Positions 1-1,539 are shown, numbered from the stretch's first letter. The stretch is DNA of 15,097 bases from a virus (IMGVR_UViG_2671180979_000021); one strand, 5' to 3'. Made by a program: numbers and translations. The notes: generated by a model not told the origin, from the sequence alone.

Positions 1-222
1 TCACTGCGGAAGGCGTCTGTAACAACCGAACTGATAGTCTGCCAGACCCGCCATAACCAGCTGGGTCAGTATTAACTGGCAGCGTTCGCGTGAAAGGTAA
101 GTATTCTGCGCAATCTCCCCGACTGTCGCCGGTTCGGTGACGCTCAATTCATTAAACACCACTCTGGCGGTTTCGGTCATATCTTGCTGTTTTAGCATGT
201 CTTTTTCCCTTCTGGTTAACAT
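1..222 (-). CDS. Small protein, 73 aa, possibly a winged-helix DNA-binding regulator (FaeA/PapI-like pattern)
   Basis: Complete ORF in the track: ATG at 220-222, stop at 1-3, purine-rich AAGGGA upstream. The central segment TVGEIAQNTYLSRERCQLILTQLVMAGL resembles recognition-helix regions of small wHTH regulators. Family assignment is from memory and not searched. Confidence 0.4.
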   Translation of the reverse strand: MLTRREKDMLKQQDMTETARVVFNELSVTEPATVGEIAQNTYLSRERCQLILTQLVMAGLADYQFGCYRRLPQ

Positions 223-318
223 GACATACCAATAACTCTTGTCTAAAAAGCCAGCAAGATAAAAAGTCAGTATTCACGACCACCAGCGTGTTTACTGTAC
301 TGCACCAAGTTTACAGGT

Positions 319-345
319 ACAAAAAACCCGCTCAGTGGCGGGTTT
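319..345 (-). terminator. Intrinsic terminator hairpin (CCCGC / tcagtg loop / GCGGG) flanked by A6 and T3, strongest for leftward transcripts
   Basis: Sequence aaaaaaCCCGCtcagtgGCGGGttt at 321-345. Read on the minus strand the stem is followed by a six-U tract. It lies 3' of the 475-1119 gene. Confidence 0.6.
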
Positions 346-474
346 AAGTTGTGTGGCGAAGTAACCACTCTTAACACACTAATAGTATTTTTGTTATAAC
401 ACAAGTAGCTCATTCAGTATTTTTAGAATCTTGACTTTCTTAAGCACGGCGAACTCTGAATACCAAACATAAAA

Positions 475-1092
475 TCAATTATCTTCCAGGCCGGATGCTA
501 TCAACGAAAGCCTCTCAAAAAACGCTGTAGCAGCCTTGTCCAAAGTTGAATAAGTACTGTATTCTCCGTGTTCGGGACCAACCACTACCCATGGTCGTCT
601 TTTTGGGATTCGGGACTTCTCAGAAATCACTGTTCCAGATATACCAATATCAATTGTTACACCTGTTATTATTTTCTCTTCATCTCTTTCCCTGAACTCA
701 ATTGCCATAAATGCCGTTTTTTTTCGTTTCCCGTTTTTAAAAAAATCAAATAAAGCAAAGCGATGCTCATTAAAATCAACACCCCATCGTCCTTCAGGAT
801 AAAGGGCATGAAAGTTGTCATTTACGCTCTGCATCGTCTCATAAGCTTTAACTTCTAAATCTCCATAGTGCATAGATACCGCGCAGGAGTCACTGGGTAA
901 CTGTATTTTCCCAAGATTGAAAACCTTTACTGCTCCAGAACTATGGCATCTTGCCCGCAATTTATCCCCATTTATACTAATCGGAGAAATATTCCTTAAT
1001 GTTCCGGGCTGGCTCCCTCCTAAGTAAACGACTGTTAAAGATTGCTTATTTTCAATTGCATCAACTAATACATGCTCTACATTTTTATCCAT
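475..1092 (-). CDS. Hypothetical protein, about 205 aa, AT-rich gene immediately downstream of Q; function unknown
   Basis: Track ORF 475..1119 (214 aa). The in-frame ATG at 1090-1092 (MDKNVEHV...) is preceded by GGGAG with 6-nt spacing, whereas the ATG at 1119 is preceded only by CCTCC, so the shorter start is preferred. Visibly lower GC than the flanking genes. No family recognised by eye. Confidence 0.55.
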   Translation of the reverse strand: MDKNVEHVLVDAIENKQSLTVVYLGGSQPGTLRNISPISINGDKLRARCHSSGAVKVFNLGKIQLPSDSCAVSMHYGDLEVKAYETMQSVNDNFHALYPEGRWGVDFNEHRFALFDFFKNGKRKKTAFMAIEFRERDEEKIITGVTIDIGISGTVISEKSRIPKRRPWVVVGPEHGEYSTYSTLDKAATAFFERLSLIASGLEDN

Positions 1093-1167
1093 AATAATCT
1101 CCCAATGAACAGGTATCATCAGGAGGTTATAATAAAATATGATTATTTACTTTGATTGAATTTATTA

Positions 1168-1539
1168 CTATATGTAACAATCAATTTCTAAAGATACCCC
1201 CAACATTGCCAGACAACCGTCAATAAACCCTTCAGCTTTCTGCAGTCTGATAACAACCTGATTAAGTGATATCCCCAGTTTTACCCCCAACACCCGTAAT
1301 GTAACCCCATACACATAATACATTTCCAGTAATTCGTATTGATACGGTTCCTTTTTCTTAAGAACTGTCATCGCAGAGCTAATGATCAGGCCATCGTCAT
1401 CGCTACATTGCGGGCGGGATTTTACTTTCGAAGGAATTAATCCCTTAAAACCTGCAGCAACAGATGACCATTCCACATCCTCGTGATTATTTGCCACCCA
1501 TGCCCCCCAACGTTCAAGAACCATTTGAATATCACGCAT
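1168..1539 (-). CDS. Late-gene antitermination protein Q (QuuD/YbcQ-like small Q family)
   Basis: The N-terminus MRDIQMVLERWGAW...NNHEDV.WSS.AAGFKGLI matches my recollection of E. coli QuuD-type Q proteins. GGAGA lies 6 nt upstream of the ATG at 1537-1539; the track start at 1554 would place the start inside that RBS. Last gene of the leftward early operon, as expected for Q. Confidence 0.75.
   Translation of the reverse strand: MRDIQMVLERWGAWVANNHEDVEWSSVAAGFKGLIPSKVKSRPQCSDDDGLIISSAMTVLKKKEPYQYELLEMYYVYGVTLRVLGVKLGISLNQVVIRLQKAEGFIDGCLAMLGVSLEIDCYI

Follow-up and report, generated by a model that had tools for sequence, protein, structure and literature searches.

WYL domains are known mainly as sensors of single-stranded (ss) DNA in transcription factors that activate immune operons or DNA-damage responses. 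The closest described systems are the regulators DriD, CapW, BrxR and PafBC, in which a winged helix-turn-helix (wHTH) domain is followed by a WYL and a WCX domain. In DriD, residues Tyr168, Ser172 and Arg178 hydrogen-bond the ssDNA backbone at its phosphates (PMC9186387). CapW binds ssDNA on the same WYL surface, and has been reported both to raise CBASS activity upon DNA damage and to restrict the induction of lambda prophages (PMC11662680). Here we analyzed a stretch of viral DNA of 15,097 nucleotides (nt) (IMGVR_UViG_2671180979_000021; the whole stretch is referred to as the window, and positions are counted from its first letter), and describe a gene that lies between the antiterminator gene Q and the putative late promoter, pR'. 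Its product belongs to the WYL fold superfamily, yet lacks the wHTH domain that defines BrxR, CapW, DriD and PafBC; the large, uncharacterised family to which it belongs represents a sensor without a DNA-binding output. The gene, hereafter the cargo gene or WYL gene, is located as follows:

475 to 1092, minus strand: cargo gene encoding a protein of 205 amino acids (aa) with a WYL domain and a C-terminal alpha/beta domain, and no helix-turn-helix (HTH)

An earlier note on this DNA had recognised no domain in the product, whereas the family profile and the predicted structure place a WYL domain at its N-terminus. The window protein itself matched Pfam WYL (PF13280) with 16.3-16.5 bits against a gathering threshold of 21.8 bits, and 78 of the 130 family representatives matched this model, with a best E of 4.8e-8. 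When the PDB was searched with a profile of the 130-member alignment, the WYL domain of DriD (E = 9e-5) and BrxR (E = 9e-3) were retrieved. An AlphaFold2 model obtained from the same alignment had a mean predicted local distance difference test score (pLDDT) of 86. In this model the WYL domain (aa ∼1-65) is predicted to be an Sm/SH3-like five-stranded beta-barrel with a preceding helix, and with Foldseek residues ∼1-68 superposed on BrxR, CapW and DriD with 1.1-2.0 Å over 64-70 residues (20-30% identity). The remote homology search proposed in the earlier note thus led to a WYL fold.

The predicted domain carries conserved ligand-contact residues on its barrel's upper face. The HMMER alignment pairs the family sequence YLGGSQPGTLRNISP with YEGGSTPGRTREVTP of DriD, and Y23, S27 and R33 align with DriD Tyr168, Ser172 and Arg178, respectively. 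Since Y23, G26, R33 and K56 are invariant (130/130 representatives) and G25, S27, P29, G30, P37, A47, F58 and K62 are at least 90% conserved, the pocket is the most conserved part of the family.

In the model, the C-terminal half (∼85-205) consists of a helix, a sheet of antiparallel strands and, at its end, a long helix; the insertion at 134-167 is modelled with low confidence. Its conserved residues (G/W at 102-103, K119, G121, R166-P167-W168, A187 and F191) are mostly basic or aromatic and do not look catalytic. This half gave no Pfam or PDB sequence match; on the model, a resemblance to the WCX dimer domain of DriD is possible. No HTH family was found in the Pfam, NCBIfam and PADLOC scans, and the protein begins at the alpha1 helix of the WYL domain. 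Likewise, no enzyme family was detected, and no invariant enzymatic motif was present among the 130 representatives. The NCBIfam scan returned nothing, the BFVD viral structure library gave no match at E≤0.001, and PADLOC-DB 2.0 gave no system-specific match, the only ones being to generic CRISPR-associated WYL models (E = 1.4e-3 and 6.6e-3).

Of the 954 cluster representatives matched in an exhaustive search with the family profile, 608 reached E≤1e-10; the family size of ∼950 clusters is counted at 50% identity. Nearly all members are 190-205 aa long, or 187-226 aa if a wider range is taken, and a few have C-terminal zinc ribbons or N-terminal extensions, the latter possibly being miscalled starts. 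The family has no characterised member: a literature search on WP_000360285.1 (the product in Escherichia coli S88), phrog_8498 and phage-encoded HTH-less WYL proteins found nothing directly relevant, and no paper on the family or on such proteins.

The longest open reading frame (ORF) at the site spans 475 to 1119 on the minus strand (214 aa from the first ATG). Translation, however, likely starts at the ATG at 1092, since a Shine-Dalgarno (SD) sequence, GGGAG, precedes this codon; this start yields 205 aa; with this start the gene begins 75 nt past the Q gene, in the same orientation, and fits both the protein length and the distance from the Q stop given in the earlier note. The 205-aa product matched phrog_8498 over its full length (E = 3.4e-126), and corresponds to the gene annotated by the Prokaryotic Genome Annotation Pipeline (PGAP) in S88 as WP_000360285.1, 'WYL domain-containing protein'. 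The ratio of nonsynonymous to synonymous substitution rates (dN/dS) was 0.21 against a 73%-identical allele that other E. coli prophages carry at this site. This value and the large family led us to reject a chance ORF; the cargo gene is a real prophage gene. A lysis or holin function was also rejected, because no such domains were found and the real lysis cassette lies downstream (in S88, holin and lysozyme genes lie ∼5 kb further downstream of the cargo gene).

The gene is AT-rich relative to the prophage. Its GC content is 0.396, and 0.32 at third codon positions (GC3), against 0.50-0.56 and 0.55-0.65, respectively, for the upstream DUF968, KilA-N, RusA and LexA-like genes; the composition of Q is intermediate (GC 0.42, GC3 0.395). 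The lower GC content noticed earlier was therefore borne out, and the gene did not match the backbone in composition.

The position of the gene relative to the late promoter was then defined by the following features:

376 to 404, minus strand: putative late promoter pR', with -35 TTGTGT (404-399), a 17-nt spacer and -10 TAGTGT (381-376)
337 to 375, minus strand: conserved 39-nt initial-transcribed block, GTTAAGAGTGGTTACTTCGCCACACAACTTAAACCCGCC, supported by exact-pattern copies and by homology to the 'qut' of phage 933W
362 to 355, minus strand: qut-like element ACTTCGCC inside the conserved block, homologous to the 'qut' annotation of 933W
319 to 345, minus strand: intrinsic terminator, the tR' equivalent of the late unit, supported by folding and by cross-phage conservation

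The predicted transcription start of the putative pR' is near 369. The GenBank record of 933W lists, as putative features, a pR' (TTTACG-16 nt-TATCAT) that overlaps Q at its end, a qut (ACATTGCC) and a terminator, and the -35, -10, qut-like element and terminator of the window align column for column with this putative module. In DLP12 of E. coli K-12, TTTACG-16-TATGCT, the block and the terminator follow nmpC, ∼100 nt before the holin gene essD. A yAnnnT hexamer precedes the conserved block in all QuuD-type phages compared. The -35/-10 elements in both WYL alleles (TTGTGT with TAGTGT or TAATCT) are poorer matches to the consensus than those of 933W or DLP12. The loci used in this comparison were 319-404 (minus strand) of the window, L188:2623-2705 and L180:4696-4775.

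The block GTTAAGAGTGGTTACTTCGCCACACAACTTAAACCCGCC is almost invariant among the short-Q phages compared, and runs into the terminator. SfV, which has a different Q of 250 aa, has the terminator and everything downstream in common, but the block is absent. We collected 162 copies of the block by exact pattern from IMG/VR contigs and phage records; 147 of them have a Q21-family Q gene (product 39-100% identical to the window Q) 50-2996 nt upstream, and the other 15 have less than 1.9 kb of upstream sequence, too little to judge the presence of Q. In cargo-less phages the block lies only 50-59 nt beyond the point where the Q match ends. An apparent GTTA direct repeat in the block is mentioned as speculation only. 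Rfam, run on 1-1700, gave no sign of a known RNA family in the block. The sole Rfam match was to STnc130, an enterobacterial small RNA, at 217-353 (plus strand), and was sub-threshold (30 bits, E = 0.045, where the gathering score is 55). This match is antisense to the late operon, in a stretch that the terminator and the conserved leader also partly occupy.

The terminator folds into an 8-bp stem, in which 5 pairs are G-C, with a loop of 6 nt and a T6 run (hairpin at 345-324, T-run to 321). The hairpin is kept in the window, a Stx2a phage, phiP27, DLP12, 933W and SfV, while loop and stem sequences vary, and the records of 933W and SfV both list it as a terminator. A pattern scan found neither this terminator nor the promoter at 404-376; both assignments rest on folding and on comparative evidence. 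The literature searched for a mapping of the DLP12 late promoter yielded nothing directly relevant.

Because the whole putative pR'/qut/terminator module is downstream of the WYL gene, we place the gene in the interval from Q to pR' rather than in the one from pR' to tR'. The terminator at 319-345 pointed out in the earlier note is a classical intrinsic terminator that is conserved across phages. Its placement of the gene between the late promoter and this first terminator did not hold, since the gene (1092-475) lies upstream of the pR' homologue (404-376), and the late promoter that it could not locate has now been assigned, putatively, by alignment with the 933W annotation.

To learn how the gene is distributed, we compared the region downstream of Q across related prophages, as the earlier note had suggested, and found the gene missing or replaced by other cargo. 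In a megablast search 52 of 5426 complete E. coli genomes carried it, every copy being at least 99% identical and adjoining a Q gene. Phage records have Q and/or the distal block (window ∼1-390) in common without the cargo gene: it is absent from Stx2a phages, PhiR5_1, SfV, phiP27, PhiR40_1, mEp460 and DLP12, all of which have flanks in common with the window. The interval is empty in the Stx2a phages and PhiR5_1, and holds an antisense 148-aa ORF in PhiR40_1, an antisense 308-aa ORF in mEp460, a co-directional GIY-YIG gene in phiP27 and antisense nmpC in DLP12 of K-12. A tblastn search of 50,697 phage records gave two distant homologues only. These results confirm the variable, low-GC insert proposed earlier for the Q-downstream cargo position; with neither lysis domains in its product nor a place in the flank-sharing phages, the gene does not behave as a core late gene of the holin or endolysin kind.

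The slot between Q and the block accommodates at least 20 insert sizes or classes, from 0.6 to 3 kb (IMG/VR loci L064-L179). The GC content of the inserts is 0.31-0.47, and does not exceed 0.42 except in two that carry an insertion sequence (IS) element. Twenty-two of 27 representative inserts are purely antisense to Q. Only two cargo types, the WYL gene and the GIY-YIG gene of phiP27, run entirely in the direction of the lytic operon; one mixed insert (L117) has a co-directional methyltransferase-like ORF and two antisense genes. When a sample of ten slot cargo proteins was scanned against PADLOC, matches were obtained to PDC-S20 KAP NTPase (E = 3.5e-176), NsnA/PD-T4-2 DUF262 (E = 5.9e-45), an OLD/HEC-04-like ATPase (E = 2.3e-36) and PDC-M53A (E = 2.1e-32), and five of the ten gave no match. 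An ORF that reads as cytosine-methyltransferase-like lies beside the OLD/HEC-04-like ATPase. Many two-gene cassettes in the slot (a ∼310-aa and a ∼150-190-aa protein that looks membrane-spanning) also had no match.

Between two alleles (window 475-1539 and L054:5541-6618) Q and the WYL gene have equal synonymous divergence (dS 0.80 and 0.84), and the flanks are closer (dS 0.27 for DUF968 and 0.095 for the downstream wHTH gene). Q and the WYL gene have therefore travelled as one module, and the mosaic boundaries enclose the two as one exchange unit. Disturbed copies of the WYL gene also exist: in L029 an IS1 lies between it and Q, in L059 an IS5 lies inside it (transposase 319/326 identical to K-12 InsH), and in P0006 a frameshift leaves a version of 144 aa. 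The host can therefore do without the gene. Most likely, it is an accessory insert in a recombination hot spot between Q and pR'.

We then asked how the gene could be expressed. A pattern scan of the coding strand found no sigma-70 consensus match in the 75-nt spacer between Q and the gene (24% GC). A hairpin was predicted at the end of this spacer:

1099 to 1125, minus strand: hairpin over the Shine-Dalgarno sequence (GGGAG) before the WYL start, predicted by minimum free energy and centroid folds in both alleles

The hairpin ends 6 nt ahead of the start codon and is also scored as terminator-like by the scan. It is present in the window and L054 (5961-5999) alleles, and its outer stem is kept despite sequence differences. 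As modelled, it could act as a translational mask or as a weak attenuator. Given that the WYL gene follows Q at 75 nt in the same orientation, and that no promoter of its own could be recognised, we regard it as most likely a delayed-early gene that is read through from Q on N-modified transcripts. We infer that it is probably made together with Q in lytic growth, and not constitutively in the lysogen. Homologues in distant phages are likewise co-oriented with late or structural genes, and the antisense orientation that prevails in the slot is the usual one for lysogen-expressed genes. The Q-independent transcription in the lysogen suggested earlier is thus not supported for a gene that lies upstream of pR' and has no consensus promoter. 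As to the suggestion of a moron or lysogenic-conversion gene, the part that stands is a variable cargo of foreign composition; an own promoter was not found by the pattern scan, and the downstream terminator belongs to the late module.

Elsewhere, homologues occupy diverse contexts. A profile scan of genome contigs with a 5-sequence alignment gave seven loci. One homologue follows tail genes and precedes a Rha-type regulator, and another lies between a terminase gene and a Rha-type gene. Others are found beside a repressor-like gene in an apparent P4-like primase element (judged from ORF content only), between the genes for integrase and a LexA-like repressor of Pseudoalteromonas phage PY3 (here the homologue is part of a longer fusion protein), in a 209-kb cyanophage, and beside DUF262-, HEPN- and NERD-like genes (read from sequence motifs) in a Leucothrix metagenome-assembled genome (MAG). 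Most members whose context could be examined are in accessory positions of phages, prophages or satellites. No neighbour gene is conserved across the contexts examined, and the gene is therefore a single-gene module of mobile elements.

Taken together, the reading that we favour, tentatively and on what the sequence offers, is that of a lytic-phase product, co-transcribed with Q, that binds ssDNA. The WYL gene would be the last gene of the N-antiterminated early-right operon and would be transcribed with Q after induction or infection; its place in the lytic programme follows from this presumed co-transcription, and the SD-masking hairpin may add translational control. The product would be a soluble two-domain protein whose WYL pocket keeps the phosphate-contacting residues that DriD uses for short ssDNA, and whose C-terminal alpha/beta domain, with its long end helix, probably dimerises and helps to close the ligand crevice. 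Since the pocket is intact, and there is neither a DNA-binding output domain nor an enzyme motif, stoichiometric ligand binding is the simplest mode of action: the protein, probably as a dimer, would bind or sequester ssDNA or a similar oligonucleotide during lytic growth, and the benefit to the phage would probably be counter-defence. A more specific version, which we regard as rather improbable, is that of an 'alarm-signal sponge', in which a headless copy of a BrxR/CapW-type sensor soaks up the short ssDNA that serves as the de-repression signal, or forms poisoning mixed dimers. During replication of the prophage, BREX, CBASS and other immune operons under WYL control would thereby be kept off. 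Several observations weigh against the lytic ssDNA-binding reading. The window protein falls short of the Pfam WYL threshold; DriD Arg176 is not conserved, the family having A, T or S at position 31; and the equivalence of K56/F58 to DriD Arg204/Trp206 would follow from strand order, without an explicit alignment. In addition, a weak promoter of its own could lie in the 24%-GC spacer, the PY3 and Leucothrix homologues sit where lysogen-expressed genes usually sit, and the neighbouring cargo in the same slot includes defence candidates; these contexts and candidates fit a defence role equally well.

Such a role, in anti-phage defence or superinfection exclusion, is somewhat unlikely. The protein would be made in the lysogen from a weak promoter of its own, and its WYL pocket would sense ssDNA replication or recombination intermediates of an incoming phage, which would be blocked directly or through a host partner. 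The Q-to-pR' slot is indeed rich in candidates (PDC-S20, NsnA/PD-T4-2 DUF262, the OLD-like ATPase and PDC-M53A), WYL domains are typical of defence loci (PADLOC WYL matches at E∼1e-3), and like many defence cargoes the gene is AT-rich and rare; the Leucothrix homologue beside DUF262, HEPN-like and NERD genes and the PY3 homologue between integrase and repressor point the same way. However, the protein has no effector domain, no invariant acidic or histidine residues that would suggest catalysis and no match to a specific PADLOC system, and the contexts have no partner gene in common. Moreover, the gene runs in the direction of Q and lacks a consensus promoter, whereas the defence-like cargo in the slot is nearly all antisense. 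It is also rather doubtful that the product is a factor intrinsic to the phage, either an ssDNA- or RNA-binding accessory of replication or recombination, or a sensor of ssDNA damage that tunes the lysis-lysogeny or late switch, possibly with the co-diverged Q. By far the least probable is the model of the earlier note, a lysogenic-conversion or defence gene between pR' and the first terminator that is expressed constitutively without Q. The interval downstream of Q does hold such cargo (stx, nmpC), and the gene has a foreign composition and is followed by a terminator, but the homologue of the 933W module (a putative annotation) is wholly downstream of the gene, at 404-319, the 75-nt spacer has no promoter consensus, and in cargo-less phages the end of the Q match is only 50-59 nt away from the block.

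At the left end of the window the order on the minus strand is a DUF968/HNH gene (1557-2552), Q, the cargo ORF, the terminator and a small winged-helix ORF (1-198/222). The two genes that flank the slot and the late module are:

1168 to 1539, minus strand: antiterminator gene Q of the Q21/933W/QuuD type (PF06530, E = 1.5e-47; 123 aa from the ATG at 1539)
1 to 198 (ORF to 222), minus strand: small winged-helix gene, the first after tR' (phrog_331, E = 1.2e-37; weak TrmB/MarR matches)

The longest ORF of Q begins at a TTG at 1554, and the ATG at 1539 is the start given by PGAP in S88. The Q protein matched the Q21 structures 6P18/6JNX (E = 5e-10), and its full-length identity with the Q of 933W is 56%. 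The phrog_331 gene is kept whatever the cargo, and also follows the terminator in S88, SfV (orf47), phiP27 (L23) and Stx2a phages. Its 5' leader (window ∼223-318) is almost invariant, even across differing Q types. Downstream of the module, the S88 prophage (L001 10307-13745) has the late-region layout of Stx phages without stx: an HTH protein gene, tRNA-Met, tRNA-Arg, tRNA-Arg, a NanS-p-type SASA esterase gene and a holin gene.

If ssDNA binding by the family is true, it could be used to ask, in a simple test, whether the ssDNA alarm signal is disturbed or exploited by phages, and the sponge version, if true, would represent a new class of counter-defence, with the transcriptional alarm and not an effector as its target. 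The late promoter of a widespread Q family is now putatively located in these prophages, and the Q-to-pR' junction, with its many defence-like systems, could help in the mining of new ones. A cargo position downstream of Q was already known, e.g., for nmpC in DLP12; the systematic Q-to-pR' hot spot and the corrected promoter position are useful, not surprising.

Compared with the wHTH-WYL-WCX regulators DriD, CapW, BrxR and PafBC, the likeness resides in the WYL domain, with its 1.1-2.0 Å superposition, and in a Y-x-G-G-S-x-P-G-x-x-R loop that is nearly identical to that of DriD, including the equivalents of Tyr168, Ser172 and Arg178. As in DriD, where the WCX domain serves dimerisation, the cargo protein has a second, C-terminal domain that ends in a long helix. 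This domain, however, has no sequence match to WCX, and its arrangement is helix-sheet-long helix, whereas that of DriD is beta-alpha-beta-beta-alpha-beta-alpha; the Foldseek alignments with DriD reach 125-131 columns, but with a root-mean-square deviation of ∼14.6 Å. Unlike BrxR, CapW, DriD and PafBC, the cargo protein has no N-terminal wHTH domain and no linker helices, and its gene lies beside neither a regulated operon nor a palindromic operator, the neighbours being Q and the pR' module. Phages and satellites encode the family as a single-gene cargo, in contrast to these regulators. WYL1, the accessory protein of Cas13d, has an N-terminal ribbon-helix-helix (RHH) domain and ∼385 aa, and adjoins type VI-D CRISPR loci. 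The cargo protein has none of these features; a CRISPR-associated, WYL1-like role was rejected, because no RHH domain and no CRISPR locus were found.

With regard to the cargo of other prophages, the slot is exactly the one that nmpC fills in DLP12, where it lies between quuD and the conserved pR' block; nmpC is likewise variable and of foreign composition, but it is antisense and has its own promoter, whereas the WYL gene is co-directional with Q. In 933W stx lies downstream of pR'/tR' and is Q-dependent, whereas the WYL gene is upstream of pR'. Finally, Tad1/Tad2 and Acb2 are small non-catalytic phage proteins that sequester a nucleic-acid-like immune signal. Their likeness to the cargo protein is a functional analogy only: the ligand proposed here is ssDNA, and theirs is a cyclic nucleotide.
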